The notes beneath the pieces are model-generated. The model searched no databases. It worked only from the letters and a program-made list of their open reading frames with translations, and was not told where the DNA came from. DNA of 40,421 bases from Propionibacteriaceae bacterium (GTDB lineage Bacteria > Actinomycetota > Actinomycetes > Propionibacteriales > Propionibacteriaceae). Positions 4,401 to 38,726 of the stretch are shown here, piece by piece. A program made the position numbers and the translations under genes. The stretch covers positions 1 through 40,421 of the forward strand of contig JAITVA010000254.1 in NCBI GenBank assembly GCA_031286045.1. Direction: 5' to 3'. Position 1 is the stretch's first letter. Each line of letters starts with the position of its first letter.

Positions 4401-6847
<2,447 letters not shown>

Positions 6848-16145: not shown

Positions 16146-16477
16146 TCTTTACCCCCCACGTTATTTGAGATACTTTCCGATGTTTCCAGTCGCCATTTTC
16201 GAGCCCCTGGCAATACCCGCTACAACAGCAACCTGCTGTAATAGCACTTACCCCGTAAGCTTGCCATCTTTGCCGACATCATGCAATATCGGTGGAGAAG
16301 CCATGTTATTACTATGGATAGTCAGTGATGTGGCTCTGTCTTCGGCTTAAACATACTGTGCAGTCTCTATGAGATCGCCGTTCTGTTCATCTGTCATCAC
16401 ATGTTCCAGGTCAAGAGAATATGTGCATTTCAACATGATATATGCCGTGACATGCGCTGTCGCAGCCGACAAACACC
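16146..16477 (-). promoter_or_regulatory. AT-rich (by eye below 50% GC) 332-bp intergenic region: promoter/5' UTR of the surface-protein gene and 3' end of the PKS operon
   Basis: Composition contrasts sharply with the ~63% GC flanks. Contains TTGACC and several TAnnnT hexamers on the minus strand, but no single promoter can be fixed by eye. Confidence 0.5.
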
Positions 16478-17374
16478 TCACCGGATGATGCGACCCATTC
16501 GCCACGACGCGATGACGCCGAGGACCACAGTCAGCCCCAGCAGGATCATCACCATCGTGGCAGTGGTCAAGTCATGTCCCTGCACCGTTAGCTCAGCGCC
16601 GACCGCCTGCATCAAGTCTGTCAATGACTGATCACGAGACTCCCCTTGCGGCAGGAAGGAGAAAAGCTGAGTGGCTCCCGGCTGCATCGAAGGCCGCCGC
16701 ACCAAGGCGGCGGTTTGAGCGAAGGGCAGCAGGGACAGCACCGACACCAGGTTCTCAGACAGAGTGGACGGCATGACATAACAGAACGACAGGAAGCCCA
16801 TCGCAGTGCCCATAACCAAGGCGTAGCCGTTGTAAGCCCCCTGCGTGGCTGTGAAAGTGACCATGACTGTGTTGAAGGCGGAGAAAACCAGACAGGACAG
16901 AAACACACCGACGATGGCTCGCGAGCCCTGGTCCACCGTCAACAAGGGCTGGTCTTGAAGGTAGGTCCACAGTTGGCCCAAGGCCCAGATCGCGATAGAG
17001 ATAATGAAGGACACCGCGACAACCGCCACCACGTATCCCAGGGCCAACTGCCAGCGGCGAAGCGGGGCCACCAGATAGTCGGAGAACCGACCGCTGACAC
17101 GGTCCTCCACAAAGGCGGACAGAATGCCGACCGAAGTTGAGAAGGTCGCCATGGTCGTGATCGAGGCGAACATCCAGGAGTCGCACAGCGCGTAAGCGTC
17201 AGCCGACGTGGAACCCGGCACCATCGCGCCCATCGCCTCCGCCATCTGCTTGCGCAAGAAGACGACGAATAACGCGAACATGATCAGCGGCCCGACCATC
17301 GACGAGAAGACGCTCATCGGATCGCGCCAGTAGGCCCGTAGGTTGCGCCGGGCCAAAGTGAGGACCTGCTTCAT
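16478..17374 (-). CDS. ABC-2 type transporter permease
   Basis: 298 aa with ~6 hydrophobic segments and an N-terminus (RRNLRAYWRDPMSVFSSMVGPLIM) typical of the ABC-2/DrrB family. ATGA overlap with the upstream ATPase gene. Confidence 0.8.
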   Translation of the reverse strand: MKQVLTLARRNLRAYWRDPMSVFSSMVGPLIMFALFVVFLRKQMAEAMGAMVPGSTSADAYALCDSWMFASITTMATFSTSVGILSAFVEDRVSGRFSDYLVAPLRRWQLALGYVVAVVAVSFIISIAIWALGQLWTYLQDQPLLTVDQGSRAIVGVFLSCLVFSAFNTVMVTFTATQGAYNGYALVMGTAMGFLSFCYVMPSTLSENLVSVLSLLPFAQTAALVRRPSMQPGATQLFSFLPQGESRDQSLTDLMQAVGAELTVQGHDLTTATMVMILLGLTVVLGVIASWRMGRIIR

Positions 17375-18342
17375 GCGGACCCTGCTTCCTTGAGTGTCGC
17401 CTTCCCCGGTGAGCCGTCGTCGCCACGATGACCAGTCAGGGCTAAAAAGACATCATCCATCGAGCCATGGCGAAACTCAAAGTCATCGATATAGCTCCAC
17501 AGATAGGGCATCAACCACTTGACCTGCCGAGTCGAGCTCACCGACAAGCGCACCGGATCATCCGGCACAGTGGGCGCCGTGACCGCACCAGAGGGGAAGG
17601 AATGCACCAGCAGACGCATCACCTCGGGGACATTCGACACATGCAGCCGAAGTTCGCCCTGACTGTGGTCCTGGCGAAGTTTTGACGGCGTGCCTGTGGC
17701 GACGATCTCGCCCGCTTCGATGATGCAGACCATGTCGGCGCGCTCGGTCTCTTCCATATAGTGAGTGGTCAAGAACACTGTCATGCCTTCATGCTCGCGC
17801 ACGTCGGCGATCGCCTGCCAAACCTGCTCACGGCTACGAGGATCGAGTCCTGCGGTCGGCTCATCCAAGAACAACATGCTGGGACGATGGATCAGCGCCC
17901 GAGCAATGTCAGCTCGCCGCTTCTGCCCGCCTGACAGTCGTCGATACTGTCGGTCAAGGAAAGACTCCATCTCCAACAACTCGGTGAGTTCACCGACCCG
18001 GGCCCGACGGGTGCCAGAGTCGAGCCGGTGAAAACGAGCTCGAAGCGTCAGATTCTCACGCACAGTCAGGCGTGGGTCGAGCAGAGCCGCCTGAAAAACG
18101 ACTCCGATGCTGCGTCGAATGGCGTCATTGGATCGACCCAGGCGGTGTCCGGTGACCCAAGCCTCACCCCCAGTCGGCCTCAGCAATGTCGTCAAACAAC
18201 TGATAGTGGTCGACTTGCCAGCGCCGTTGGCGCCCAAAAAGGAGAAAAAGGTTCCTTCTTCGACATTGAAACTGATGTCCTTGACCGCCTGGACTCGGCC
18301 GTAGGACATTCGAAGATGTTCCACCTCGACCGCTGCTGTCAT
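17371..18342 (-). CDS. ABC transporter ATP-binding protein (DrrA-like, ABC-2 subfamily)
   Basis: Walker A GANGAGKST, signature LSGGQKRR, Walker B MLFLDEPTAGLD. ATGA overlap with the hydrolase stop (18339-18342). Confidence 0.9.
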   Translation of the reverse strand: MTAAVEVEHLRMSYGRVQAVKDISFNVEEGTFFSFLGANGAGKSTTISCLTTLLRPTGGEAWVTGHRLGRSNDAIRRSIGVVFQAALLDPRLTVRENLTLRARFHRLDSGTRRARVGELTELLEMESFLDRQYRRLSGGQKRRADIARALIHRPSMLFLDEPTAGLDPRSREQVWQAIADVREHEGMTVFLTTHYMEETERADMVCIIEAGEIVATGTPSKLRQDHSQGELRLHVSNVPEVMRLLVHSFPSGAVTAPTVPDDPVRLSVSSTRQVKWLMPYLWSYIDDFEFRHGSMDDVFLALTGHRGDDGSPGKATLKEAGSA

Positions 18343-19151
18343 CGCGCCTCCGAAGCCTCGGGCCCCGACGCCGGCTGAACCGAGGAGTCGACGACCATCG
18401 TCGCCGAGAACTCGACCAGGCGCTGGGCGATCGCGTCACCTTGACGGACCACCATGTTGTGGTCGCCTTCCAGTAGAAGCAGTTGGGAATGGGGCAGGCG
18501 CGCAGCCGCCGCGTGCCCATCCTCGATGTAGGGTGACGACTGGCCGTAAACCAGCAGAGCCGGGCGAGTCATCGTCTCCAAAGGCGCGTTCCAGAAGAAA
18601 TCGGCGTCAGCCCTCGCGTCAGCCAACAGCCCGGCGTCGAGGAGAGAGTGGACAGTGTCACGGAACTGTTTGGCGGAGCGTGCTGGCAACTTCATCCCGA
18701 TCGACTCGGAGTACCCCGCCAGCGTCTCAGTGATCTTTTGGTCGACGTCGTCGACCTCGACCAGGCTTGAAGACTTCAGCCCGGCCGCCTCCAGCAGGGC
18801 CACTCCCAAGACCCGGTTCGGCGCCTCCAAGGCCGTCTCGACGACAATGGCTCCACCGAAGCTGTACCCCACCAAAAAGACCTGGTCGATGCCCAGGGCA
18901 TCCAACAATCCGATCAGATCATGAGCCATGTCCCGCAGACGAAATCCGTCAGCACGGCCCTTGGAGAAGCCATGGCCGCGCAAATCGTACAGCACCACTT
19001 TGTAGCCCAACTGGGCCAATTCTCTGGCGCCACACCAGAAGAAGATGCCGTGATGTGTGTAGAGACCATGGACCATCACCACCGTCGGGGATCCCTTGGG
19101 ATTCAGGACCTGGTTGTACAAGCGAACGCCGTCGACCTCACTGTATGACAT
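18339..19151 (-). CDS. Alpha/beta-fold hydrolase (candidate thioesterase/acyltransferase of the PKS operon)
   Basis: VVMVHGLYTHHG oxyanion region, GYSFGG nucleophile elbow, GDHNM histidine. Start placed at the ATG at 19151 (MSYSEVDG); a GTG at 19175 is the alternative. Either start overlaps the ACP stop. Confidence 0.8.
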   Translation of the reverse strand: MSYSEVDGVRLYNQVLNPKGSPTVVMVHGLYTHHGIFFWCGARELAQLGYKVVLYDLRGHGFSKGRADGFRLRDMAHDLIGLLDALGIDQVFLVGYSFGGAIVVETALEAPNRVLGVALLEAAGLKSSSLVEVDDVDQKITETLAGYSESIGMKLPARSAKQFRDTVHSLLDAGLLADARADADFFWNAPLETMTRPALLVYGQSSPYIEDGHAAAARLPHSQLLLLEGDHNMVVRQGDAIAQRLVEFSATMVVDSSVQPASGPEASEAR

Positions 19152-19458
19152 CGTCGATGAACCCCACGATGTCACCCACGGTGAGCTCGCCCATCTGCTG
19201 GATCGGCATGCTCGCTATCCACATGACCAACGGTTCCGCCACAGGGTAACGCTGGTCGATCGCCTCGACCAGTCTGAGCATGTCCAGGCTGCTCAGCCCC
19301 AGATCCGCCAGTGCTTTCGTCTGCTGAGTGATGGGCATCACCGCGACCACATCGGCTCCGAGCACCTCGCTCAGACAGTCCTTCAGCACCCCCATGATCG
19401 CCGCCGAATCGACCGGCTCAGTCCCCGAGACCCAGCCTGCCGTCGCCTCATCAGCCAT
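19138..19458 (-). CDS. Discrete acyl carrier protein (106 aa)
   Basis: ADLGLSSLDMLRLVEAID phosphopantetheine-attachment motif (Ser at nt ~19288-19290). The ATG at 19458 lies 1 nt after the PKS-B TGA and is preceded by GGAGGGAC. The upstream 29 codons in the ORF track overlap PKS-B. Confidence 0.8.
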   Translation of the reverse strand: MADEATAGWVSGTEPVDSAAIMGVLKDCLSEVLGADVVAVMPITQQTKALADLGLSSLDMLRLVEAIDQRYPVAEPLVMWIASMPIQQMGELTVGDIVGFIDDVIQ

Positions 19459-19459
19459 G

Positions 19460-22400
19460 TCAGTCCCTCCTCGTCCAACCAATGATGTACCCGTCGTCAG
19501 TACGACTGGTGTCGACCCACACCTCGCCGACGTGCAGCGACTCACCCTCGACCCGGTCGATCTGGATCTGCTTGGGCGCGGCCTCCAAGCCGCTGCCGCG
19601 CCGCTTGGCGCAGGCCTCCTTCGCCACCCAGAAACGGGTCATCCACTCGTCAGTGTCGCCCTGAGACCGAGCCAGCTCCCGCTCTTGGTCAGTCAAGGCC
19701 AGACGCCACACCGCCTCATCACGGGGCTCGATCTTCTCGATGTCGATACCCACCGGGACAGTGTCCACCATGGCCACGCCATGGCCGTGACTATGCGCCA
19801 CCGACACCTCGGGGCGGTTGGGGAACTCCTCACCGTCGCGATCACGCACGATCGGTTTGCCGTTCTCGTCGTAGTCGACCGTCACCTCGATCGGATAAAG
19901 ATAGGGGTCACCCTCGTGATGCAGCCAGGAACGAACCGCGTCCTTGAGCGCGACGCGACCGGACAGGAAGTCGATCTGGGCGCCCCGCGTCGCCAACTCG
20001 TCGGCCCGCCCCTTCTCCTTGGCGGACAAGTAGCACAGCACCAGGAAGTAACCAGCCGAGCGAGTGGGATTGTGCGAGTCGTAGTAGTACACCCCCGGAG
20101 CGATCTGTTGGGCCAGAACTGAACGCCAAGGGTGGTTGACCGACTCCCACAAACTGATGTCCATACCGAGACGCTGGTTGACCCAACCCCGGGCGATGGC
20201 CCAGACCAAACCATCGCGCAGATAGATGATGTCGCCGGTGATGAATCGGTCGCCGATCTGACGAATGACACAGTACGACTCGAAGACACCGCTTTGGTCG
20301 AACATGTCCTGGTAGAAACGAACTTCCTTGACCCGCACCGGGAAAGAGACACGGTTCTCGTCCATGTAGAGGTGGAGGAACAAACCGATGCTCTGACCCA
20401 TCTGGTCGAGCAGCGATCCCTTGCCCTGCCTGGGTTCGACGATCGAGTGGAAGCCATGCTCACCGTACAGGGTGTACTCCTTGGCTGACCAGTAGCGGGG
20501 ACGATGGAAGCTGTACTCGACATACTGGTCCGCGGTCGGCATCGGCTCGCGCACCGCTGGTCCGATGTCGCGCCTGGCGTCGGCGACAACATCGGCCTGG
20601 GGCGGCGGTGGCATCTCCTCGGCCAAGGTGACGTCAATGGTGAGGCGACCGGGCACAGTCAACGCCACAGTGAACTCTGATTTCCAAAAGCCCTGAACCG
20701 TTGAGTGGAAGGGCATGGTCACCGCGATGAAATCCATCGCCGTGATCGGACCGAGCTTGACCACCTTCAGCCCAGGGGCTTGGGCCATGGCCACTTCAGC
20801 CATCAACTCCATGCTCATCGTCAACGGGATGACCGAATAGAAGTCTTCTTTCCTGGGCCAGTCGGCTGGTTGATTGACGATGGAGTGATCCAGCACGTAG
20901 GGGTGGTCGTCAAGGCTGAGATCGAGCGGCACCTCAAAAGACGTGCCCGCACGACTGGGCTTGGCTGGCGCCTGAGCACGCGGCGCAGGCGGCATGGAAG
21001 GCGTCGAGGCCGCAGTCAAGGCTGCGTCTGGCGAAGCCGGGACCGCGACGACCGGGGTCTGGTCCGTGACTGTCAAGGACTGCGGCCCCGCAGCAGAAAG
21101 CGGCGCGACCGGAGGCATCGACGTCGTCGTGGCCGGGGCAGGCAGGACCATTGATGGCATTGCGACCACCGGCGGCATCTGCCCTGGAGCCGGCCATGCG
21201 CGGGTGAAGCCACGTGCGGGCAGGCCACGATGGTTGAGTGGAATCTGTGACAGCGGCGGTGGCGCCAGTGGGGTTTTCGGCGCCACCGCCGTGTCGTCCC
21301 CCCCCACGCCAGTTGTGGAGACAGTCCCGCTATCGTCCGTTTGGGCTGCGGACGACGCGACTGGGGACAGTTGTGGGGTGCCCTCACTCGACACCCGGCC
21401 AAGGTCGGGAACTGCGACCGACCTCGTGGCGGCCGACCCGGTCGCCGCAGACTTTCCACCCTCCGCTAGACAGCGATCGGCCGGCGCCAGCACCTCATCC
21501 AAGCTGGCGAGCTCAGTCAGGATCGGCGACCCGTTGGGCAAAAGGTGCAAAGCCTTGAGGTTTTGCAGGGCGCGAGGCATGCCCAGGAAATCAAGATCGG
21601 CCGCGCCTCCCATGACGAACAAAAGGGCATGGACGCGACGCAACTGGTCGACCGCGCTACGCAATGAGCTGATCGCTTGGATCGAGCCGAATTCCCGCCC
21701 GGCCAACGTGTCGTCGATGAAAGACGTCAGCGACCCGACACCCGACTGGATGAAGACGCGCACCCCTTGGTCGTAGAGTGCCTCGATCAACTGTCTAAAG
21801 TACACCGGTTCGGTCAACTGGCCCCCGAACGAGGCGTCAGCCATGACGCCGTCTGACGGGATCTCAGCCAGACTCACCGCCGAGATGACCGGAGCCTTCC
21901 CCCGCCGCACCGGCAACTGGGACATGGCCTTCAACGGCACCTGGACGACATGCTTGAACAAGGGCGTGTGCAAGGCCGTGCCGAAAGGCAAGACTTGACA
22001 GACGACATGATGGGCCTCCAGCGCGCCGATGAGCGGCTTGGTCGACTCACCGACCGCGCAGAACACCCTTTGGCTCGGGCAGTTGTCATTGGTGAGGTAG
22101 ACGTCAGGGAAGTCGGCCAATATCTCAGCTTCGGCGTCATCAGACAACTCGCCGTTGGCGACCACCAAGTGGAACTCAGGAATCAGGCCTTCCAACTCAT
22201 CCATCGGAAGATGGGTCAGGTCGAAAATGACATGGTCGAAGGACTCATCCAGCATTCCAGCCGCCCGCCCGGCGTGCCACTCGCCGATCGAGTGTCCGGC
22301 CAAGTAATCAGCCTTCACCCCGGTCGCTTCCAGGGCCTGATTCACGAGCAGGGAGGTCTTGAAGTGTGCGATGGTGGCGTTCGCAGCGGCGTCACCCGAC

Positions 22401-24187
22401 TCTTCTGGGAACTGCATCCAGGTCAGGCCCAACTCATCGACCAAGGAGTCATGCTCGACACCCGCGCTGGCGTCCCAGCCAGGGAACAGGAAGGCGACCT
22501 TGCCGCCCTGCAGCAGCAGTGGATCCTCGCTGTACCAGATGTCGGAGCGTCCCAGCCAGGGCTTGCCTCGTTTGATGATGTCGATCGCCAGTTTGACGCG
22601 CTGCGGAGTGGGATTGAAGATGACCAGACGACAGGGATCGCCGGGCTGGCCGACGACTGAGCCGAAACGGTTGACGAAATGCTCCAGATCAATCTTGGAC
22701 AGCACATCCTCTCGGGTCGAACCAGCGACCGCGTAGGCCTGAGGCGAGTACTGACGACGACGATCGGATCGGTAACGACCGGCTTGTCGGGCGGGCTCCT
22801 GATACGCGGTCAACACAGCATGTCCGTCGACACCGCCGAAACCGAACGCGTCCACCCCCGCTATCAGGGGCAAGCCACTCGCTTGCCAATCGATCAAGGT
22901 GTCTGGAGGGGTGAAACGTGAGGCGGCCATGGCCTCCAGTGGTTCGGCGCAATGCAGGGTCGGCGGTATCTGACGATGGTGCAGCGCCAAGGCTGTCTTC
23001 ATCAACCCCATCATGCCTGCCGCCGGCATCAGATGACCGATGTTCGACTTGACTGAGCCGACGAAAGCCCTCCGCGCGGCCTTGTCACCGAACACCTTGG
23101 TCAAAGTCTCAATTTCGGTGGCGTCGCCGACCGGGGTGCCGGTGCCATGGGCCTCGATATAGGCGACATCGGCCGGATCGAGCCCAGAGCGTTCCCAGGC
23201 ACGGCGGATGACGGCCGCCTGACCGTCGCTGTCGGTGATCAAGACCGAATGGCCGCCACCATCGGAGCCGATAGCGGTGCTCTTGACCACAGCGTAGATT
23301 CGATCATTGTCAGCAATGGCCCGTTCCAGCGTCTTCACCACCATGAAACCGGCGCCCTGACCGATGAGCAAACCGTCACCCTGGGCCGAGAACGGCGCGA
23401 TCTCGCCACGACGAGACAAGGCGCCCATCATCGTGAAGGCGCCCCAAAAAATGGAGGACTGAGCCGAATGCATGGCGCCCACCAGGATGACATCAGACTC
23501 GCCTGAGACGAGCAGACGACTGGCATGGTCCAAGGCGACAATACCCGAAGCACAGGCGGCGTCCAGAACATAGGCCGGCCCGTGCATGTCGAAGTGATTG
23601 GCCACCCCGGCGGCCACAAGATTCGGCATGGTCGCCGCCGCCGTGTCGCCTTGGAACCGGCCGAACTTCGTCTGGTACTCGGCCTTCACACGGTCAAGAT
23701 CTGACTTCGGCAGATGGGGCAGAGCATGGCGCAACAACGCGGTGAACTCGTCGGCGAAGCGGATGAGTTCAGCCCCGCGCAACTGGGGCAGACCGGCGAA
23801 ATTGCCACGCCCAATGATGACCGAGGCCTTGTCCAGCGACACGTTCTTGGCCAGGATTCCGGCATCGCTCAGCGCCTCCTCGGCCAGAGTGTAGGACAGC
23901 AACTGGTCCGGATCCGCTCCATCGGCCGCCACCGGCAAGATGCCGTAACGCATCGGATCGACGACCCCCGGTGTGATGAAGCCACCACGCCTGCAGTAGA
24001 AACGATCGATCACGTCCGAGTCGGGCTGATCGAAATAGAAGGGCTCAATCACCTCCGGTGGCGCCTCGGTGATGGAATCAACGCCCTGGGCGATGTTGCT
24101 CCAGAACTTGCCCACGGCGTTGGCGCCCGGACAGATCAGTGACATGCCAACAATAGCGATGTCACTCGGTCGAGCTTCTGGAACCAT
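19460..24187 (-). CDS. Type I PKS/FAS subunit B: KS-AT-(Pro/Ala/Met linker)-DH-PPTase
   Basis: KS triad: DAACASG (Cys at nt 23552-23554), EAHGTGT, KSNIGH. AT: FLFPGW and GHSIGE. DH: DDHPYVLDH and LLDQMGQ. Sfp-type PPTase: GIDIE (nt 19736-19750) and FWVAKEACAKRRG. Start probably the ATG at 24187, 8 nt after GGAGG; the ORF track begins at a GTG at 24202. Confidence 0.9.
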   Translation of the reverse strand: MVPEARPSDIAIVGMSLICPGANAVGKFWSNIAQGVDSITEAPPEVIEPFYFDQPDSDVIDRFYCRRGGFITPGVVDPMRYGILPVAADGADPDQLLSYTLAEEALSDAGILAKNVSLDKASVIIGRGNFAGLPQLRGAELIRFADEFTALLRHALPHLPKSDLDRVKAEYQTKFGRFQGDTAAATMPNLVAAGVANHFDMHGPAYVLDAACASGIVALDHASRLLVSGESDVILVGAMHSAQSSIFWGAFTMMGALSRRGEIAPFSAQGDGLLIGQGAGFMVVKTLERAIADNDRIYAVVKSTAIGSDGGGHSVLITDSDGQAAVIRRAWERSGLDPADVAYIEAHGTGTPVGDATEIETLTKVFGDKAARRAFVGSVKSNIGHLMPAAGMMGLMKTALALHHRQIPPTLHCAEPLEAMAASRFTPPDTLIDWQASGLPLIAGVDAFGFGGVDGHAVLTAYQEPARQAGRYRSDRRRQYSPQAYAVAGSTREDVLSKIDLEHFVNRFGSVVGQPGDPCRLVIFNPTPQRVKLAIDIIKRGKPWLGRSDIWYSEDPLLLQGGKVAFLFPGWDASAGVEHDSLVDELGLTWMQFPEESGDAAANATIAHFKTSLLVNQALEATGVKADYLAGHSIGEWHAGRAAGMLDESFDHVIFDLTHLPMDELEGLIPEFHLVVANGELSDDAEAEILADFPDVYLTNDNCPSQRVFCAVGESTKPLIGALEAHHVVCQVLPFGTALHTPLFKHVVQVPLKAMSQLPVRRGKAPVISAVSLAEIPSDGVMADASFGGQLTEPVYFRQLIEALYDQGVRVFIQSGVGSLTSFIDDTLAGREFGSIQAISSLRSAVDQLRRVHALLFVMGGAADLDFLGMPRALQNLKALHLLPNGSPILTELASLDEVLAPADRCLAEGGKSAATGSAATRSVAVPDLGRVSSEGTPQLSPVASSAAQTDDSGTVSTTGVGGDDTAVAPKTPLAPPPLSQIPLNHRGLPARGFTRAWPAPGQMPPVVAMPSMVLPAPATTTSMPPVAPLSAAGPQSLTVTDQTPVVAVPASPDAALTAASTPSMPPAPRAQAPAKPSRAGTSFEVPLDLSLDDHPYVLDHSIVNQPADWPRKEDFYSVIPLTMSMELMAEVAMAQAPGLKVVKLGPITAMDFIAVTMPFHSTVQGFWKSEFTVALTVPGRLTIDVTLAEEMPPPPQADVVADARRDIGPAVREPMPTADQYVEYSFHRPRYWSAKEYTLYGEHGFHSIVEPRQGKGSLLDQMGQSIGLFLHLYMDENRVSFPVRVKEVRFYQDMFDQSGVFESYCVIRQIGDRFITGDIIYLRDGLVWAIARGWVNQRLGMDISLWESVNHPWRSVLAQQIAPGVYYYDSHNPTRSAGYFLVLCYLSAKEKGRADELATRGAQIDFLSGRVALKDAVRSWLHHEGDPYLYPIEVTVDYDENGKPIVRDRDGEEFPNRPEVSVAHSHGHGVAMVDTVPVGIDIEKIEPRDEAVWRLALTDQERELARSQGDTDEWMTRFWVAKEACAKRRGSGLEAAPKQIQIDRVEGESLHVGEVWVDTSRTDDGYIIGWTRRD
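19463..20140 (-). other. PKS-B C-terminal Sfp-type 4'-phosphopantetheinyl transferase domain
   Basis: aa ~1355-1580. FLSGRVALKDAV, GIDIEKIE, FWVAKEACAKRRG. Confidence 0.8.
20168..20941 (-). other. PKS-B PKS-type (double hot-dog) dehydratase domain
   Basis: aa ~1088-1345. LDDHPYVLDHSIVNQP and D-x3-Q (DQMGQ). No FabA-type motif seen. Confidence 0.65.
21593..22510 (-). other. PKS-B acyltransferase-like domain
   Basis: aa ~565-870. Has GHSIGE and ALHTPLF but lacks the GQGSQ motif (FLFPGWDAS instead). Confidence 0.7.
22805..24163 (-). other. PKS-B ketosynthase domain (intact Cys-His-His, so not a CLF)
   Basis: aa ~14-466 in ORF-track numbering; motifs as listed for the CDS. Confidence 0.85.
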
Positions 24188-24219
24188 ACTCATTTCCTCC
24201 ACAGTGTCTATCCCGTTCG

Positions 24220-27200
24220 CTAGTCATTCTCAGCTGTCAAGACAGCGTCGATAAAACCTTGAATGTCGCGTTCTTGACCAGCCAAGGCCATGACCGAGCA
24301 GTCCTCGCCAGTCATGAGCTCATCGACAAAGAACTCTGCCCCTTCCGCCAAGGGCATCAGGCTCAGACCGCGCTTGCCCATCTGCTCGGCCAGAGCCGGC
24401 GAGACCATGCCCGCCCCGCCCCATGGCCCCCAAGCGATGGCGACCGCCTTCACTGCCCGACCCTGACGCTCAAGCAGCCGTGCGGTCTGGTCGAACACCG
24501 AGTTGGCCGCAGCGTAGTCACACTGGCCTCGATTGCCGAAAGCCGACGACATTGACGAGAACAGCACCAAGAGTTTGAGCTCGCCGACCATGTTGGCGAT
24601 GACCGCCAGCGGATCAGTCTTGGTCGTGTACACCCGCTCGAACGACTCCCAGGTCTTGTCCTGAAAAAGCTTGTCTTCCAACACCGCCGCGGCATGGAAC
24701 ACGGCGTCGACATGGCCGAACCGCCTGCGCAACTGGTCGACCAAGCGATGAAGCGCGACCGTGTCGTGGATGTCGAGGCCGACATAGCCGACGTCGGCCC
24801 CACTGGCCCCGATCTGGAGCAGAGCCTCTTCGATGCTCTTGGCCTTCATGATGGCCGCGACGCGCTGCTTGACCGCGCGCGGGTCGGTCATGTGCTCGAC
24901 CTCGATGAGGTGGCGCTGCACCTGGGACGCGTCAGCCAGGTCAGCGTAACGCTGAGCGAGATCGGCATCGCGAGCAGTGCGCCCAACCAGGACGTAGTGG
25001 CAGGGCTGGACCGACGCCACCTGAGCCATCAAAGCCGGCGAGATCCCCTGAGCGCCACCCAGGACGATCACGACTGAGTCGCGGTTCAAATCTCCCAGCG
25101 GCCGTCGGGAACCCTGCGTGCCTTGGACCACTGGGACATCGCGCAGACGCCTGTCACCGTCGTACACCACCTCCGGGTACCTGGCCTCGGTCGCCATCTC
25201 AGCTAGAACCATGTCTGAGAATTCGGGTTCGACGAAGAGGGCCTCGCCAGTGATGGACTTCCATGTCACCTGGGGGTACTCCAGGCGCATCGTTTTGATG
25301 AAGCCTGGAAAACCCTGCAGTGTCGTGATGTTCACGGCCGAGTCATCGCTGCTAGCCGTGTCGTCGAAAACCACCACCTGGCCACAGACCGTCAAATCGA
25401 CGCTCTTCACCAGGTCGAACAACTCGTGCATCGACCATGGATCGGTCGCGGTGCGGATGAAGATCAGCCCATCGATGTCATGGGGCTGGTCACCAGCCTC
25501 AATGACGACGCTGGTCGCCCCCGCTTCAGCCAGCTTCCGGGACACTGCGGCGGCGAACCGTCCAGCGGTGATGGCGAAACGTCGGCCCAGCAAGGAACGA
25601 GTCGGACCACTGAAGGGGTACGACTGCCGCTGCCACACCAGCCGCGTGATCGGAACAGTCGCGGCCGGAATCAGGTGGGCGTCGTCCCCGACGCCCTCAC
25701 GCGCTTTTGGGGAGGCATCACCTGCCCCCTCGTCTGCCGGGCTGGACGAGGCCACTGGCGCGGGCTCGGCCCCGTCGCTGTCAGCGATGTCTTGGGCCAG
25801 TTGCTGGAGCCAGTCGACCATGCCACGCAAGGTCTTGATGGCGGCGAGCTGCTCTAGACCAGACGCCGCGTCGGCGTCGTCAGCCTCGGACTCTGGCATG
25901 TCGATCTTGTTGGACAAGGCCCCCAGTATCTCCAGTCGCTTGATCGAGTCGATACTGAGATCGGCCTCCAGATCCATGTCCATGCCCAACATCTCAGGTG
26001 GATACCCCGTCTTCTCAGCGACCACCTCCAAGATGATGTCCTTGAGTTGATCGGCGCTGAGGTCTTGCACCTTGGGCAACAAACTACTCGAGACAACCCG
26101 TTCCTGAGTCGGCTCAGTCATCGTCGAGTCCAGGGGTGACGGCGTGGACAAGGCGGTGGGTTCAGCCACCAGAGTCGGAACTGGGGCTTGGGCCACAATC
26201 GCCGCAGGGGTCTGGGTCTCGACCGACATGGCGACACTGACTGGCCCAGGCACAGCCACTGGCGTCGTGACTGGCATAGCACCCATGGGCGCCATGGTCA
26301 CCGGCGGCGCCGGGTAAGCCATTGGCGCCATTGGCGCATACCCCCATTGCTCCGCGGGCGACGACGCCGGCCCACCCGGCTGCCCGAGCCCCATTCCGGT
26401 CAGCAGAATATCGCGCTGGTCGTCGAGCATGGCGCGCATGTTGAGCAGGTAGGTGTAGACCAACTGCTCCCGACCGCTGAGTGGCTGCGGAACAGTCACA
26501 TTGACGGGCATGTTTGACCCGGTCGTCTCCGGCTGTGGTGCCATAGGTTTGTCTCCTAACATGGTTTCTTTTTGGTGAGATGGAAAGACGTGTGCCGCAG
26601 GATCGAGATGATGCTCGCCCTGCTCGCGCCAACGTTTGATCGGGACCGCCTGTTGACCGTCCACCATCCATACGGTGGACGAGGCCGCGTACGCGCCGGG
26701 ATCACTCAGGTCCAAGGCCACCGCGTGTCGACCATGGAACAAGTTATCAACCTCGATGTCACGACCGGAGGCGACCCACCGCGCCAGGGCTCTCAAGAAG
26801 GTGCGCATGCCGTCCGCGCCAGACAACTCCGTCGCAATGGTGACGACATCTGCTCCCAAAGTGGCGCTTGCCAGCCCCGTCAGGGTTTTGCCTGGTCCCG
26901 CTTCGATGAAGACCCGGATGCCGTCGTCATACATGGCGCGCAACTCGTCGCTGAAACGAACCGGCTTGACCAGGTGTTCCGCCAGACGTTGGCGAATCTT
27001 CGCCGGGTCAGATGGATACACCGCCGCCGTCGTATTGGACCAGACCGGCATCTGGGGCGTGCCCAAATCGACATCAGCCAACACCTGCGCGAACCCAGCC
27101 TCGGCAGTGGTCAACAAGGGAGTGTGAAAAGCGCAGGCCACGTCGATGCGCTTGGCTTTCACACCTTTGTCACGGCACTGTGCCACCAGCGCCTCGACAG

Positions 27201-30200
27201 CCGCCGTGGCGCCGCCGACACCGACCTGAGTCGGCGAGTTGTAGTTGACCGCCCAGAGATCATCGCGCCCGCGCAGCAGCTCCTCAGTCTCCTCGGCGGG
27301 TTGGACGACCACAGCCATGGCTCCCGGATCAGCTCCGGCGCTCGCCAGGATCGTTCGCGCCCTGGCCTTCGACAGATCCACCAAATCCGAGGGATCGATC
27401 ACACCGGCGTAGACCAAGGCGGGCAGTTCGCCGTAGGAATGGCCAGCCACGGCATCGGGCGTGACACCGAACCATGTCAGCAGTTTCGCGATGGCCGAAT
27501 CGACGACACCCAGCAGCGGTTGCGCGTTGCGCGTGTCGGTCACAGCTGCGCGTTGAGCCTGTTTGGCCTCATCACTGAAGGCGGCGCCAGGCAGGCCGAC
27601 ACGTTCCAGCTCCGGGTGTCGTTCCAGCTCATGACGAAGACCGGGGAACATGACGAACAAGTCACGAGCCATGCCGACACGTTGACTGCCCTGCCCCGAG
27701 AACAGGAAACCAACCTTACCTGCGACCGGATCGCGGTAGTACACACCGGGGGCCTGAGCGCCATCCAAGGCCACAGTGATCTTCGTCAGAAGCTTGCTCC
27801 ATGAACCGGACACGATGGCGATCTGGATCGGCTTGTCCGACGCCTTCGCCAACGTGTAAGCCACATCCTTGAGCGCTATGGTGTGGCTGACTTGGGCCAG
27901 TTCACGCACCTGGCGCAACTGCTCACAAGCCTCCTCACGGGTGTCACCGCGCACCAGGAAGAGCTCGCGGGCCCAACTCGTGGCGCTCGGCGTGTCCGCA
28001 GAGGTCGACTCCGACGGGGTGTAATTCTCGACGATGGCATGGAAATTGGTGCCACCGAAACCAAAACCGGACACGCCCGCGATGCGTCGCTTCTCGGTCC
28101 ACACCGTGGCGTGACCGTTGGCGTTGAAACGGAAGGGCGAGCGCGACTCCTGGTAGGCCTTGACCGGTTTGTTCAAATGCAAGGTCGGCGGAATCACGCC
28201 GTGGCGCACTGCCAGGGCGGCCCGGATCAAGCCGGCGACCCCGGCGGCGCACTTGGTGTGACCAATCTGGGTTTTGACCGACCCGACGAAGGTCTGTCCA
28301 GGCAGGGCCCCGCCGCCGATCATGACCCGCGACAAGGCCTTGAGTTCAGTCGAGTCCCCCACCGCCGTGCCCGTGCCATGGGCCTCGATCAAGCCGACCT
28401 GGCTCGGCAGAACTCCCGCCATCCGATAGGCCCGCTCAATCGCGGTCATCTGTCCGCGCATGTTCGGCGCGGTCAACCCAAGACTGCGCCCGTCCGACGA
28501 GCCCTGGACGCCCCGGATCACAGCATAGACACGATCACCGTCACGTTCGGCGTCACTCAGTCTCTTCAAAATGACAATGCCCACACCCTCGCCCAGAGCC
28601 AGGCCATCACCCGACTCGTCGAAGGTGGCACAGTAGCCACGCGGAGACAAGGCATGGGTGGCCGAGAACATGACATAGTCGAGGATCGAATTATGCAGGT
28701 CGGCTCCACCGCAGATCACCATGTCAGACTGACCCGACCACAGCTCCTGGCACGCGACGTCGACTGCCGCCAAAGATGAGGCGCAAGCCGCGTCGACCGT
28801 GAAATTGCGCCCGCCGCAGTTGAATCGGTTAGCGATCCGCCCGGAGGTCACATTCGACAAGATCCCCGCGAAGGAATCCTCGTCGACCTTGGGCAGGGCC
28901 GTCGCCAGTTCGTCCGGGATCTCGCCGAACAAGGTACGCAGCCCCGTGCGCGAACCATAGGCGCTCGACAGTTCACCCATCGCCTCAGTTCCGATGATGA
29001 CTGAGGTGTCGGGTAGACCCCGCTTGATCTGGTCGGCGTAGCCGGCATCCTGAAGAGCCCGTTTGGCCACCAGCAGACTCAACAGTTGAGCCGGTTCGAC
29101 CGATGAGACCGTCGCCGGTGCGATGCCGAACTCCAGTGGGTCGAACTCGGCTGGTGACAAGAAACCACCCCACTGAGAGACCACGAAGTCAGTGTCGGTG
29201 GTGCCTTTGCGATAGAAGAGGGCGGGATCCCAGCGCTGAGCTGGCACCTCGACGATGGAATCATGACCCGACAGGATGTTGCGCCAATACTCATCGACAT
29301 TGTTAGCGTCGGGGAAGAGGCCTGCCATACCGATGATGGCGATGGGCTCCGGCGACGCGCCCTGGTCGCCATCGGCACGATCGAGCCAACCCCTTTCAAA
29401 GTCGGCAGGCTCGACGACGGCGAGGCGCTCGATCAGATCGGTGGCTCCGGTGGTCACCGCTTCATGAAGCTCGACCATCTGCGAGACATGGTCGGTCAGC
29501 GCCGCCACGTCGCCAGCCATGTACAAGCCCTGCTGACGCTGCTCGTCAGGCGTCAACCGCGTCAACTCCATCTGTCCATCTCCGCGGCCCAAGGCCTTGG
29601 TGGCGACCCTGGCCCGTCCCAGGTTGAGTTCTTCCAGCGCCACTCGCCGCGCCAGGGAATCCATGTCCATTCCAAGGATGCGGGCCTTCTCTTCCTGGAA
29701 GAAGTCGATGAAGGGGGTGGGCAAGGCTCTGGTCTCTTGGCCCGGCGCAGACTCCAACAACACGGTGCGGTCCGCCGCTGTCGCTAACTCTTGGAACAGC
29801 GAAGTGATGGCCCCGGACTCGACTGCCTGTCTGGTCAACAGGTAGGCCGTGCCCATGATGACACCGACCTTGGCCCCGAACGCCGCCAGCGAGGCTGCCA
29901 TGATGGAGACGAAAGCGGATGACAACTCGTCGTGGATGCCACCCGCGAAGATCGCCGTCAACCCCGCTGGATCGTCGGTGGCGAGCAGGTGGATCAACTG
30001 CTTCTCCCACAACACCGTGGAGTACAAGGGGCCGACGTGGCCGCCGGACTCGCGTCCTTCGAAGATGAAGCGGCGGGCCCCAGCAGCGATGTTGTCGTCC
30101 AGCAGTGTGGCGGAGGGCACATGTAGGAACGCCTTGATCCCAGCTTTGTCGAACCGTTTACCCTGAGCTGGACGCCCCCCCGCGATCACCACAGCGGTCG

Positions 30201-31329
30201 GCTTATGGCGCATCGCCAGAATCTGATCGACTTGGGCGTCGAAAGCTGCCGGCTGGATGAAGCCGAGCAAGCCAGCTCCCCAGGCGGCTTCGCCGAGCTG
30301 ATTCTCTGTCGCCGTCAGCGCCTCCTGCGTCTGAGCGGCGGAGGCCATTCCCACAGCCAACATCGGCAAGGCTCCGGCCCGTGCCACCTCTGTCAGGAAC
30401 TGAGGCGTGTCGGAGACCCTAGCCATCGGACCTTGAATGATCGGATAGCGCACACCCAACTCCTGAGCCAGATCGGAGTCAGGATGGAGGGCCGCCTGAA
30501 ACTTAGCTTGTCTCACGTGGCCGTGAGCCGCCTCGGTGATGGCATGGACCAGAGCATCCAGGTGACGATAGGTTCGCTTGTACTCGGCCGCCAGCGTGAA
30601 GTCTTGACCGAGAGGAACAAGGTTGCAGGCCAAGTCGAACCCCGACATCAAAGCCTCAGCCTCGGCCGCAGTGGTGGGGTGGGGCATCGTCGGCCACTTC
30701 GCGACGCGATGGCCACACACCATGGTGGTCTCGGCGCCATTGAGTTTCTCCAAGACAGACTTCAGAGCCTTAGGGGCGCCGCTCGAGCTCAGCAGGGCCA
30801 CCTGTGAGTCAAGATGAACCCCAGCCGCCCCCAATGCGAGATAGGCGGCGGCGGTATGCACCCCGACACCGCCGTGGATGTACAACCTCACCCCGGCGGC
30901 GAGCGCGATGTCACGGACCCGCTGGAAAAGGATGAAGGTGGACTCCTCACCGCCACGCCCAGCGGCGTCATTCCCCTTGACAGCGATGGCCGTGACGCCG
31001 GCTGCGATGGCGGCCAGGGCCTGGCGAAGATCGAAGACCTGCCAGACCCGTTCGATCGAGTCATCCACACCGGTGTCGTCGACGCCCCACTCGAGAAGAA
31101 CTCGGTCAACCTGAGCAGGCAGCTCGACACCTTTGACCGGACCAGCCAAGGCCACCCCGAAGCAGGCGTGAGTCCGACGAGTCACCTCGCGTAGCTGTGC
31201 CGCCGCTAGCGCCGCGTCACGGCCCAGGTGAAGGTAGGGGTACGCTCCGCATCGCAGAGACTCCACCACTAGTCTCCAATCGGGGGCCTCAAAAGGCGTG
31301 ATGATGCACACATCAGCAGTTTTTGACAT
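24220..31329 (-). CDS. Type I PKS/FAS subunit A: tandem NMO-like (FMN enoyl reductase)-KS-AT-ACP-KR
   Basis: ER: YPIIQGPMARVSD and EGRESGGH. KS: DAACASS (Cys849, nt 28783-28785), EAHGTGT, KTQIGH. AT: FLFSGQGSQ, GHSYGE, CAFHT. ACP: LEADLSIDSIKRLEILG. KR: VIVLGGAQGIS and CDYAAAN. My residue count from these motifs closes exactly on 2369 aa. Confidence 0.93.
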   Translation of the reverse strand: MSKTADVCIITPFEAPDWRLVVESLRCGAYPYLHLGRDAALAAAQLREVTRRTHACFGVALAGPVKGVELPAQVDRVLLEWGVDDTGVDDSIERVWQVFDLRQALAAIAAGVTAIAVKGNDAAGRGGEESTFILFQRVRDIALAAGVRLYIHGGVGVHTAAAYLALGAAGVHLDSQVALLSSSGAPKALKSVLEKLNGAETTMVCGHRVAKWPTMPHPTTAAEAEALMSGFDLACNLVPLGQDFTLAAEYKRTYRHLDALVHAITEAAHGHVRQAKFQAALHPDSDLAQELGVRYPIIQGPMARVSDTPQFLTEVARAGALPMLAVGMASAAQTQEALTATENQLGEAAWGAGLLGFIQPAAFDAQVDQILAMRHKPTAVVIAGGRPAQGKRFDKAGIKAFLHVPSATLLDDNIAAGARRFIFEGRESGGHVGPLYSTVLWEKQLIHLLATDDPAGLTAIFAGGIHDELSSAFVSIMAASLAAFGAKVGVIMGTAYLLTRQAVESGAITSLFQELATAADRTVLLESAPGQETRALPTPFIDFFQEEKARILGMDMDSLARRVALEELNLGRARVATKALGRGDGQMELTRLTPDEQRQQGLYMAGDVAALTDHVSQMVELHEAVTTGATDLIERLAVVEPADFERGWLDRADGDQGASPEPIAIIGMAGLFPDANNVDEYWRNILSGHDSIVEVPAQRWDPALFYRKGTTDTDFVVSQWGGFLSPAEFDPLEFGIAPATVSSVEPAQLLSLLVAKRALQDAGYADQIKRGLPDTSVIIGTEAMGELSSAYGSRTGLRTLFGEIPDELATALPKVDEDSFAGILSNVTSGRIANRFNCGGRNFTVDAACASSLAAVDVACQELWSGQSDMVICGGADLHNSILDYVMFSATHALSPRGYCATFDESGDGLALGEGVGIVILKRLSDAERDGDRVYAVIRGVQGSSDGRSLGLTAPNMRGQMTAIERAYRMAGVLPSQVGLIEAHGTGTAVGDSTELKALSRVMIGGGALPGQTFVGSVKTQIGHTKCAAGVAGLIRAALAVRHGVIPPTLHLNKPVKAYQESRSPFRFNANGHATVWTEKRRIAGVSGFGFGGTNFHAIVENYTPSESTSADTPSATSWARELFLVRGDTREEACEQLRQVRELAQVSHTIALKDVAYTLAKASDKPIQIAIVSGSWSKLLTKITVALDGAQAPGVYYRDPVAGKVGFLFSGQGSQRVGMARDLFVMFPGLRHELERHPELERVGLPGAAFSDEAKQAQRAAVTDTRNAQPLLGVVDSAIAKLLTWFGVTPDAVAGHSYGELPALVYAGVIDPSDLVDLSKARARTILASAGADPGAMAVVVQPAEETEELLRGRDDLWAVNYNSPTQVGVGGATAAVEALVAQCRDKGVKAKRIDVACAFHTPLLTTAEAGFAQVLADVDLGTPQMPVWSNTTAAVYPSDPAKIRQRLAEHLVKPVRFSDELRAMYDDGIRVFIEAGPGKTLTGLASATLGADVVTIATELSGADGMRTFLRALARWVASGRDIEVDNLFHGRHAVALDLSDPGAYAASSTVWMVDGQQAVPIKRWREQGEHHLDPAAHVFPSHQKETMLGDKPMAPQPETTGSNMPVNVTVPQPLSGREQLVYTYLLNMRAMLDDQRDILLTGMGLGQPGGPASSPAEQWGYAPMAPMAYPAPPVTMAPMGAMPVTTPVAVPGPVSVAMSVETQTPAAIVAQAPVPTLVAEPTALSTPSPLDSTMTEPTQERVVSSSLLPKVQDLSADQLKDIILEVVAEKTGYPPEMLGMDMDLEADLSIDSIKRLEILGALSNKIDMPESEADDADAASGLEQLAAIKTLRGMVDWLQQLAQDIADSDGAEPAPVASSSPADEGAGDASPKAREGVGDDAHLIPAATVPITRLVWQRQSYPFSGPTRSLLGRRFAITAGRFAAAVSRKLAEAGATSVVIEAGDQPHDIDGLIFIRTATDPWSMHELFDLVKSVDLTVCGQVVVFDDTASSDDSAVNITTLQGFPGFIKTMRLEYPQVTWKSITGEALFVEPEFSDMVLAEMATEARYPEVVYDGDRRLRDVPVVQGTQGSRRPLGDLNRDSVVIVLGGAQGISPALMAQVASVQPCHYVLVGRTARDADLAQRYADLADASQVQRHLIEVEHMTDPRAVKQRVAAIMKAKSIEEALLQIGASGADVGYVGLDIHDTVALHRLVDQLRRRFGHVDAVFHAAAVLEDKLFQDKTWESFERVYTTKTDPLAVIANMVGELKLLVLFSSMSSAFGNRGQCDYAAANSVFDQTARLLERQGRAVKAVAIAWGPWGGAGMVSPALAEQMGKRGLSLMPLAEGAEFFVDELMTGEDCSVMALAGQERDIQGFIDAVLTAEND
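24310..25662 (-). other. PKS-A ketoreductase (structural plus catalytic subdomains)
   Basis: aa ~1890-2340. Rossmann GGAQGIS and catalytic Tyr in CDYAAAN. Confidence 0.8.
25810..26082 (-). other. PKS-A single in-cis ACP domain
   Basis: aa ~1750-1840. DSIKRLE with Ser1795 at nt 25945-25947. Preceded by a ~150-aa Pro/Ala/Met-rich linker. Confidence 0.85.
26830..27717 (-). other. PKS-A acyltransferase domain (malonyl-type motifs)
   Basis: aa ~1205-1500. GQGSQ, GHSYGE (Ser1298), AFHT. Confidence 0.85.
28021..29349 (-). other. PKS-A ketosynthase domain
   Basis: aa ~661-1103, from EPIAIIGMAGLFP to GFGGTNFHAIVENY. Confidence 0.9.
29410..31329 (-). other. PKS-A N-terminal tandem nitronate-monooxygenase-like TIM barrels (PfaD/FabK-type ER)
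   Basis: Copy 2 (aa ~290-620) has IIQGPM and SGGH. Copy 1 (aa ~1-215) has ITPF and AAGRGG instead. Confidence 0.7.
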
Positions 31330-31536
31330 CGTTCTTTTCTCAAATCCCTACCGGACTGCTGTCCGACCCTTATCGCTTTGTTGCCCAAAAGCAACCTCAA
31401 CAATATACGGCAAGTGCAAATATTCAAAATTGGATGACGCTTGATCACATAGAAGACTACGAGCGAATACCATTGAGTAAATGAAAAACAACCTCAATGA
31501 TTTCTTATAGGGACACGCTCAACGAGGGTGTGGCGG
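31330..31536 (-). promoter_or_regulatory. AT-rich 207-bp region between the recN stop and the PKS-A start (operon promoter/5' UTR)
   Basis: Markedly lower GC than its flanks, with AT-rich stretches (TATATTG, TTTTGAATATTTGCAC on the minus strand). Small hairpins at CGGAC-AGCA-GTCCG (~31351-31368) and GTTGC-N6-GCAAC (~31378-31395). Confidence 0.5.
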
Positions 31537-36014: not shown

Positions 36015-36569
36015 GTGAATCTCAATCGCCACACGATCGTGACCTGCGCGCTGACCATCCTCGACACCTACGGTCTGCCCGACGTCACGATGCGACGGAT
36101 CGCCTCAGCCCTGAGCGTCCAACCCAGCGCCCTGTACTGGCACTTCGCCTCAAAACAGGAGCTGCTCGCCGCCGTCGCCGAAGAGATCCTGCACGATCTG
36201 CCTCGCCTCAGCAGTGGGGAGTCGACCCGCCTACGTTTGTGGGCAGCGCGTCTCCACGGGGTGCTGCTGCGCCATCGCGACGGAGCGGAGGTCGTCTGGT
36301 CGGTTCTGGCGCTGACCCCCTGGGAAGAGGGGATCGGGCTGACCATCGAGCAAAGACTCGCCGAGTCCGGCCTCACGGCGTCGCTGGCCCACAGCGCCGC
36401 CCAAGGGCTGCTCAATCTCGTGCTCGGCCAGGCTCTCAGCGCCGACCAACGCCGCCAGGCCCAACTGCTCAATGTCACGACGCTGACCGACGCCGACGAC
36501 CCTGCCACCACCCTGGACGACACCGTCGCCATTTTTGTGGCGGGAATCGACCAGGCCCGATCATGCTGA
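36015..36569 (+). CDS. bioQ: TetR-family transcriptional regulator, BioQ-like
   Basis: N-terminal HTH VTMRRIASALSVQPSALYWHFASKQELL. Overlaps bioN by 7 nt. Two TGAAC-N3-GTTCA boxes lie in the locus. GTG start. Confidence 0.75.
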   Translation: MNLNRHTIVTCALTILDTYGLPDVTMRRIASALSVQPSALYWHFASKQELLAAVAEEILHDLPRLSSGESTRLRLWAARLHGVLLRHRDGAEVVWSVLALTPWEEGIGLTIEQRLAESGLTASLAHSAAQGLLNLVLGQALSADQRRQAQLLNVTTLTDADDPATTLDDTVAIFVAGIDQARSC

Positions 36570-37231: not shown

Positions 37232-37242
37232 GCTGGTCTCAC

Positions 37243-37255
37243 TGAACACTGTTCA
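37243..37255. promoter_or_regulatory. BioQ-type operator TGAAC-ACT-GTTCA upstream of bioY
   Basis: Perfect 13-bp palindrome in the 53-nt bioN-bioY gap, 30 nt before the bioY ATG. Confidence 0.7.
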
Positions 37256-37284
37256 ATTGAGTTTCCCCAAGAGAAAGCCACTTC

Positions 37285-38648: not shown

Positions 38649-38726
38649 AGGGGCGCAATCGGGGCGCAGGAACTAGACTGGGCACAACAAAGCGCCAGAA
38701 CTGTTGGTGTTATGGAGGAGGACCTT

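Follow-up and report, generated by a model that had tools for sequence, protein, structure and literature searches.

A six-gene operon of a Propionibacteriaceae bacterium, probably for the synthesis of a secondary lipid by an Ars-like (Type M) enzyme system and for its export

A 40,421-bp contig of a Propionibacteriaceae bacterium (JAITVA010000254.1 of assembly GCA_031286045.1), analyzed in its entirety and called the window below, carries six consecutive minus-strand open reading frames (ORFs) at 16478-31329 that we think reasonably likely to form an operon dedicated to a secondary lipid, with an iterative, Ars-like (Type M) synthase resembling type I fatty acid synthases (FAS) and with a release enzyme and an exporter of its own. 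According to the ORF list they encode, in order, the polyketide synthase (PKS)-like proteins PKS-A (24220-31329, 2369 amino acids [aa]) and PKS-B (19460-24202, about 1575 aa), an acyl carrier protein (ACP), an alpha/beta hydrolase, an ABC ATPase and an ABC-2 permease; all six had been listed at these positions in a preliminary description of this DNA. Domain calls on the window proteins, made with Pfam and NCBIfam and extended by alignment, profile and structure comparisons, lay PKS-A out as a degenerate enoyl reductase (ER'), a canonical enoyl reductase (ER), ketosynthase (KS), acyltransferase (AT), ACP and ketoreductase (KR), and PKS-B as KS, AT, dehydratase (DH) and 4'-phosphopantetheinyl transferase (PPTase). 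These domains and their motifs, homology to the ArsA/ArsD pair of Azotobacter, conservation of the core genes and coupling to the exporter genes are all seen directly in the sequence.

The spacing of the six genes argues that they make up one tightly, translationally coupled operon that is probably co-transcribed. Its junctions, read off the DNA, are as tight as previously reported (17-32 nucleotides [nt], 1 nt, an overlap and two ATGA overlaps). The TAG of PKS-A is followed by a GTG 17 nt on and by ATG codons 26 and 32 nt on, and we favor the ATG at 24187 as the start of PKS-B because of its GGAGGA Shine-Dalgarno sequence. A single nucleotide separates the TGA of PKS-B from the ATG of the ACP gene, which comes with a Shine-Dalgarno sequence of its own. 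The ACP gene shares 14 nt with the hydrolase gene, and the hydrolase/ATPase and ATPase/permease junctions are the ATGA overlaps. AT-rich gaps of 207 nt upstream (31330-31536) and 332 nt downstream (16146-16477) flank the operon, and the promoter and the transcript end probably lie in them. The upstream one, between recN and PKS-A, probably holds the promoter and leader on the minus strand, and a gap of similar size (165 nt) separates the same two genes in a related locus, L001. A consensus scan across 16000-31700 found promoter- and terminator-like sites no commoner than in shuffled sequence, called no promoter in 31330-31536 and returned nothing convincing in either bordering gap. The window contains no tRNA or Rfam elements. 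G+C content drops to about 0.58 around 16-17 kb.

The connection to the Ars system provides the framework for our interpretation. We took the Ars domain layout from the A. chroococcum locus L009 and the Ars biochemistry from citing papers. L009 encodes a 2509-aa NMO-KS-AT-KR protein, two type III PKSs, a 636-aa PS-DH plus ACPS protein (P0210), an ABC ATPase and an FtsX-type permease, an order that agrees with arsABCD as described for A. vinelandii. PKS-A is collinear with the ArsA-like protein of A. chroococcum (39.6% over 1539 aa, at aa 97-1563, plus the ACP and KR regions), and both have the layout ER'-ER-KS-AT-ACP-KR in the same Pfam order. The ArsD-like PS-DH plus PPTase didomain recurs in PKS-B, here behind an extra KS-AT: P0210 covers 87% of the PKS-B DH-PPTase query (E 2.5e-27) with 27% identity over 510 aa. 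Three papers present ArsA as a fatty acid synthase making C22-C26 chains that its ACP hands to ArsB and ArsC, and ArsD as the PPTase of ArsA (PMC4824345, PMC6274091, PMC13291983). Given this homology, PKS-A and the DH-PPTase part of PKS-B correspond to a long-chain type I FAS that is proven and fully reducing, and we propose a saturated long acyl-ACP as the product of the window enzymes. The homologous ArsA/ArsD pair has been shown to make such chains (C22-C26), and a long, mostly saturated chain had also been predicted in the preliminary description.

The two systems also differ. Ars lacks a second KS-AT, a free ACP and an alpha/beta hydrolase, all of which are present in the window operon, and it passes its chain straight to two type III PKSs, which the window operon lacks; the ORF list and Pfam revealed no chalcone/stilbene-synthase-type ORF in the window, whereas such ORFs are present in L009. 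An ABC exporter lies near both loci, of the MacB/FtsX type in Ars and of the ABC-2 type in the window. In L009, positions 12018-19348, located 3' of arsD, hold the MacB/FtsX-type ABC exporter, a GT4 glycosyltransferase (GT) and a stand-alone 455-aa acyltransferase-domain protein, which may be further parts of the phenolic-lipid pathway.

Within PKS-A, whose domains like all operon features lie on the minus strand, ER' (aa 1-285; 30475-31329) is a degenerate duplicate of an FMN/NMO-type enoyl reductase that lacks the GGH histidine. Its NMO match is weak (E 0.0037), its similarity to the ER has an E value of 0.015, and alignment finds the motifs KGxExGG...FILxQ and GGxGxHxAAA in both. The duplicate is kept in ArsA, in Dyadobacter and in a stand-alone 554-aa ER of Chryseobacterium. 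The canonical ER that follows (aa ~290-640; 29410-30462) is of the FabK/PfaD type (PF03060 at 344-613; FabK model TIGR03151 at 287-635) and has a conserved FEGRESGGHVGP motif in the alignment. The domains of both synthases had been named correctly in the preliminary description, but the order of the two reductases has to be reversed, with the degenerate copy preceding the canonical one. KS_A (aa 661-1100; 28030-29349; PF00109/PF02801, domain match 661-1052) carries its Cys-His-His residues in the motifs DAACASS, EAHGTGT and KTQIGHT and is 49% identical to the ArsA KS. AT_A (aa 1205-1500; 26830-27717; PF00698 at 1208-1496, E 1.4e-39; FabD model TIGR00128, 177 bits) is of the malonyl type, with GHSYGE, an Arg at Ser+25 and an AFH motif. 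The sole ACP of PKS-A (aa ~1760-1830; 25840-26052; PF00550 at 1765-1815) has the motif LSIDSIKRLE and one DLSIDSI motif, and the KR (aa 2086-2304; 24418-25074; PF08659, E 5e-30) shares 31.5% identity with the ArsA KR region.

For PKS-B, residue conservation was judged over 39 aligned sequences, namely the window protein and 38 full-length family representatives. In KS_B (aa 14-470; 22793-24163; PF00109/PF02801, domain match 14-418), Cys217 is conserved in 37 of the 39, His352 in 38 and His390 in all. Pfam detects no second KS-like domain in PKS-B, and there is no room for a chain-length factor (CLF). The earlier view that the second KS is complete rather than a CLF has held up: by its residues, KS_B is a catalytically complete ketosynthase. 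The DH (aa ~1085-1375; 20078-20950) escapes Pfam in the window protein, and PF14765 is present in many homologues of the C-terminal 541 aa. When compared with the PDB, a 40-sequence DH-PPTase profile matched the DH domains of CurK (E 6.7e-5) and PksJ (E 2e-4) as well as Sfp (E 5e-11). An AlphaFold model of the DH-PPTase region built on the 40-sequence alignment (pLDDT 91.7, pTM 0.87) returned, by Foldseek, the double-hotdog dehydratases of MlnB, MAS-like PKS and CurF/H/J/K (E 1e-13 to 1e-10, target TM 0.62-0.75) for the DH, and Sfp (4mrt, TM 0.75) and human AASDHPPT (TM 0.63) for the PPTase. Together these three results show that a DH is present, and its structural matches, all PKS double-hotdog dehydratases, place it in the PKS type, not the FabA type. 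Its His1106 and Asp1266-x3-Gln1270 are invariant (39/39). The Sfp-type PPTase at the C-terminus (aa ~1380-1579; 19463-20065; PF01648 at 1483-1555; Sfp profile) has the D/E/K/E residues, which are near-invariant over the same alignment.

The remaining domain of PKS-B, AT_B, is PfaB-like (aa ~520-860; 21623-22645; PF00698 at 623-819, 37 bits). It retains the invariant GHSxGE motif (GHSIGE in the window protein) and the His, and it lacks the malonyl-binding Arg, with a hydrophobic residue at Ser+25 family-wide. In acyltransferases this Arg (Arg117 of FabD) binds the malonyl group. Its family-wide replacement argues that AT_B is not a canonical malonyl transferase and probably moves a non-carboxylated acyl group. 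The previous statement that the catalytic motifs are intact stands, with the correction that AT_B has its Ser and His without the malonyl-binding Arg.

The operon encodes four further proteins. The free-standing ACP (106 aa; 19138-19458; PF00550) has its Ser in DLGLSSLD and aligns with its small counterparts from Dyadobacter, Protofrankia and Chryseobacterium. The 270-aa alpha/beta hydrolase (18339-19151; PF00561, E 4.8e-27; weak PF00975) has a GYSFGG nucleophile elbow and a GDHN His and is predicted from these motifs to be a chain-release or transfer enzyme; orthologues follow the ACP in L001, L003, L005, L007, L011, L012, L014 and L015. The exporter consists of the ATPase (17371-18342; PF00005; best model drrA, TIGR01188, at 269 bits, below the 312-bit cut-off) and the permease (16478-17374; PF01061, PF12698), whose genes are kept after the hydrolase in L001, L003 and L005.

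In the mechanism that we propose for this Ars-like synthase, the Sfp-type PPTase of PKS-B would activate both ACPs, the in-cis one of PKS-A and the free-standing one, to the holo form, AT_A would load malonyl units, and KS_A, the KR, the DH of PKS-B and the FabK-type ER would carry out fully reducing cycles that yield a long, essentially saturated acyl-ACP. The KR/DH/ER set is complete with its residues intact, and the sole DH is PKS-type. A second stage would involve the family-specific extra parts, namely KS_B, the Arg-less AT_B, the free ACP and the hydrolase. KS_B may perform a chain-length-specific elongation, AT_B may transfer a non-carboxylated acyl group (a starter or the finished chain) to the free ACP, the hydrolase may release or transfer the chain, and the ABC-2 pump would then move the lipid to the envelope or the cell exterior. 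In this scheme, how long the chain is, what the second stage does, and what the product is and where it goes are our inferences from the features described above.

How this layout relates to better-known lipid and polyketide synthases bears directly on the nature of the product. Resemblance to the Pfa polyunsaturated fatty acid (PUFA) synthases is evident in the KS domains, the ACP motif, the PfaD/FabK-type ER and the PfaB-type, non-malonyl AT_B, and PfaA is the best NCBIfam model for both KS_A (TIGR02813, 875 bits) and KS_B. The DH is, moreover, fused to a PPTase, as it is in the enediyne polyketide synthases (PKSE). One could imagine that the operon makes an unsaturated product, either as a PUFA synthase or as a PKSE-like enzyme for a polyene or enediyne, yet we consider this very improbable. 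PfaA has a tandem ACP array whereas PKS-A has a single PP-binding match, PfaC has KS-CLF and a FabA-type DH whereas PKS-B has neither a CLF nor a FabA-type DH, and the ER and PPTase that are free-standing in Pfa systems are here fused into the megasynthases, the in-cis ER being functional-looking. PKSE is a single KS-AT-ACP-KR-DH-PPTase polypeptide, whereas here the domains are distributed over two proteins and joined by an ER and a further KS-AT, and PKSE is accompanied by a hot-dog thioesterase where the window operon has an alpha/beta hydrolase as its release enzyme. No enediyne cassette genes or hot-dog thioesterase gene lie beside the operon, the neighbors being recN, nadK, tlyA, a Big_1 surface protein and pyrG, and the window holds no further polyketide-related gene. 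The preliminary description had already set the operon apart from canonical PUFA synthases and from PKSE, which agrees with its single in-cis ACP and its lack of a CLF and FabA-type DH. The PKSE ancestry suggested there was a candidate that we rejected for want of evidence: the longer DH-PPTase matches inspected (P0023, P0100 and P0117) are linker-rich or differently fused members of the same family and none is a PKSE, and the best model for the PPTase of PKS-B is HetI, a weak match.

The claim that the layout is unlike that of known relatives also goes too far, since PKS-A has the architecture of ArsA and the arrangement as a whole has been catalogued as Type M. Shulse and Allen (2011; PMC3098273) list Type M, with no known product, from three Frankia strains, Renibacterium salmoninarum, Actinosynnema mirum and Streptomyces avermitilis, and they designate the Ars operon Type P. 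Fused pfaDA and a pfaBC fusion with PPTase are likewise known from R. salmoninarum, Aquimarina and Flavobacterium, an arrangement termed an uncharacterized "secondary lipid synthase" (PMC13291983, 2026). The window operon corresponds to Type M in having the pfaD-pfaA homologue fused, here in one 2369-aa protein, and in having a fused pfaB/C homologue with PPTase in PKS-B, as does Streptomyces sp. XD-27; in Protofrankia the latter is split. These Type M relatives, Protofrankia and Streptomyces, have actinobacterial hosts as here and the same order of PKS-A, PKS-B, ACP and hydrolase. Protofrankia proteins are 36-38% identical to those of the window, and a GT follows the hydrolase there instead of the ABC-2 exporter. 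The Bacteroidota version, which is Type N-like, has the same domains in the same order and keeps the ACP and hydrolase. Dyadobacter provides the closest relatives outside Actinomycetota among the proteins compared (42% identity for PKS-A and 41% for PKS-B, both full length), and Chryseobacterium distributes the domains among six genes. After the core both have GT1 and PapA-like Condensation-family acyltransferase genes and no exporter. In pairwise comparisons KS_A shares 56% identity with Protofrankia and 59% with Dyadobacter and Chryseobacterium, against 49% with ArsA. The KS_A group, which includes the ArsA KS, has 48-80% identity within it and the KS_B group 42-78%, and identities of 34-45% between them mark two old paralogue groups.

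The family is large. Searching 1.84 billion representatives with the DH-PPTase query gave 3383 matches at E<=1e-3 and 194 at E<=1e-30, the latter figure counting representatives at 50% identity over several phyla. Most full-length matches are 1400-1600 aa long with the match at the C-terminus, and the four scanned with Pfam (P0003, P0023, P0044 and P0117) are KS-AT-DH-PPTase proteins. Named members come from Propionibacteriaceae, Azoarcus and Gemmatimonadota under generic names only, and searching with ER'-ER extended the range to Tannerellaceae, Mucilaginibacter, Polyangiaceae, Streptomyces, Frankia, Caldilineaceae, Planctomycetes and Listeria cornellensis. Scanning genomes for PKS-B turned up loci L001 to L007; L008 (Pseudomonas) was dropped as a generic KS match only. 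L001, from a Propionibacteriaceae metagenome-assembled genome (MAG), is 68% identical and lies in the same order between recN and a giant Big_1 protein gene. L002 to L004, also from Propionibacteriaceae MAGs, are 53-60% identical with the same gene order (L004 judged by its matching ORF pattern), which is shared by L005 from an Actinomycetes MAG and by the Clostridiales MAG fragment L006. In L003 the six genes stand beside pst-like genes.

The four-gene core of PKS-A, PKS-B, ACP and hydrolase recurs in Propionibacteriaceae, Protofrankia, Streptomyces, Dyadobacter, Chryseobacterium and Listeria, and in every one of the compared loci KS_B-AT_B, free ACP and hydrolase come as a set, which the Ars locus lacks entirely. 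Protofrankia (L011) has PKS-A, separate KS-AT and DH-PPTase proteins, a 141-aa ACP and the hydrolase, and Streptomyces sp. XD-27 (L014) has a split PKS-A, a 1753-aa KS-AT-DH-PPTase protein, an ACP and the hydrolase. The copy at 10001-21848 of the Listeria cornellensis locus (L015) is fragmented into ER, KS-AT, KR, KS, AT-DH and an 88-aa ACPS piece, and may be a decaying pseudogene cluster or reflect assembly frameshifts.

What varies is the set of genes downstream of the core, and among the compared loci an ABC-2 exporter in place of a GT is confined to the window and the Propionibacteriaceae/Actinomycetes MAG group. This pattern is one of several points that weigh against our reading of the operon as a synthase with a dedicated exporter for an essentially saturated lipid. 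GT1 genes follow the core in Protofrankia, Dyadobacter and Chryseobacterium, accompanied in both Bacteroidota loci by genes for PapA-like acyltransferases, so the usual end product of the family is possibly a glycolipid. A hydroxyl group may be retained, in which case "saturated fatty acid" would be too simple a description. Furthermore, the putative second-stage roles (KS_B, AT_B, free ACP, hydrolase) are drawn only from motif logic and co-occurrence, the position of the catalytic acid of the hydrolase is uncertain in the alignment, and co-transcription is deduced only from how the genes are spaced. Finally, among the papers searched none assigns a product to any member of this layout or links this gene set to one, in keeping with the earlier description of the pathway as uncharacterized.

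These considerations give some weight to an alternative that we nevertheless judge rather unlikely, in which the synthase would provide the lipid moiety of an envelope glycolipid or acylated sugar, like the heterocyst glycolipids, with the hydrolase acting as a transferase, a GT encoded elsewhere in the genome and the ABC-2 pump exporting the finished glycolipid. The Protofrankia core is followed by a UDPGT-family GT gene, the Dyadobacter core (L007) by two GT1 and three Condensation/PapA-like genes, and the Chryseobacterium ginsenosidimutans core (L012) by a GT1-GT1 fusion and two Condensation/PapA-like genes. A GT gene also lies near the A. chroococcum ars locus, and the nearest model for the PPTase is, weakly, HetI. 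In the 40-kb window, on the other hand, and among the operon neighbors in L001 and L003, there is no GT or PapA-like gene. Hgl clusters encode an HglB-type thioester reductase and a GT, neither of which is found in the window (the related L007, L011 and L012 do have a GT), and a thioester-reductase domain that could provide an alcohol aglycone is lacking.

The surroundings of the operon raise a different question, whether the enzymes simply make ordinary membrane lipids. The flanking genes are secA, a xerC/D-type recombinase gene, a NUDIX gene and pyrG on one side and recN, nadK, tlyA and the gene for a BioY ECF transporter on the other. A housekeeping FAS would fit this position among core genes (tlyA-nadK-recN ... 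pyrG-xerD-secA), which is the same in L001, as well as the complete set of FAS activities including a PPTase of its own, and such a role has been suggested for the Type M cluster of R. salmoninarum (PMC3098273). We find this improbable, however, given the translational coupling to a dedicated exporter, chains of the ArsA type (C22-C26) that would be too long for ordinary membrane lipids, and a distribution that is patchy across phyla. In L003 and L004 the cluster lies in another context, beside pst-like genes, and the window PKS-A is closer to that of Dyadobacter (42%) than to that of Protofrankia (38%); these two observations together suggest that the cassette moves horizontally. Much of the nearest kin (L001-L006, P0152, P0165 and P0337-P0351) belongs to MAGs from unrelated lineages, namely Propionibacteriaceae, Clostridiales, Coriobacteriales, Tannerellaceae and Azoarcus. 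Isolate names among them (TD116, Lab288, Cu122 and Gx485) resemble those of termite-gut metagenome bins, a presumed habitat. If that origin holds, the cassette may have spread horizontally within one habitat.

Other genes in the window deserve brief mention. Directly downstream of the operon, 6858-16145 (minus strand) encodes a 3095-aa protein with 14 Big_1, 6 Invasin_D3 and 3 Big_6 domains plus Big_13 and SdrD_B, an N-terminal signal-like hydrophobic stretch, a C-terminal membrane anchor and a KRRR tail, and no LPxTG; a homologue occupies the same position in L001 (18104-24727). On the plus strand, 36015-38648 resembles a biotin ECF transporter module: its genes encode a CbiQ-type T component, a BioY S component and an ABC ATPase, together with a TetR-family regulator. 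Also on the plus strand, a 299-aa ORF at 38712-39611 has as its sole Pfam match one DNA_gyraseA_C beta-propeller blade (aa 156-199). The pyrG ORF (4997-6820, minus strand) starts with TTG and encodes 607 aa, about 55-60 aa more than the 545-553 aa of homologues, and the database lists the window protein itself with 518 aa; the true start is probably further downstream. The window PyrG is 86-88% identical to proteins of uncultured Propionibacteriaceae MAGs.

Taken as a sequence feature alone, the operon will not surprise a polyketide or lipid specialist: the enzyme layout is already known, and the operon is a further member of the widespread, catalogued Type M/N family, whose nearest characterized relative is the Ars FAS. 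What is new here is the family-wide absence of the Arg from AT_B and the degenerate ER' without the GGH histidine, and we expect these features, together with the exporter-coupled, tailoring-free six-gene form, to be of moderate interest to specialists. More tentatively, the core conserved across at least three phyla may make an undescribed class of lipid, with KS_B, AT_B and the free ACP providing a second stage, for example a partly reduced or chain-joining terminal step, and with ABC-2 export of the unglycosylated product, a new envelope or secreted lipid, in this Propionibacteriaceae lineage. Concrete hypotheses follow from the family-wide loss of the Arg from AT_B, and from the fact that KS_B-AT_B, free ACP and hydrolase strictly co-occur. 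Despite the size of the family, the products of Type M/N systems have gone without assignment since they were catalogued in 2011. Because it is compact and self-contained, packing the synthase, its activating enzyme, the carrier, the release enzyme and the exporter into 14.9 kb free of tailoring genes, the operon of this Propionibacteriaceae bacterium would be a convenient candidate for heterologous expression.

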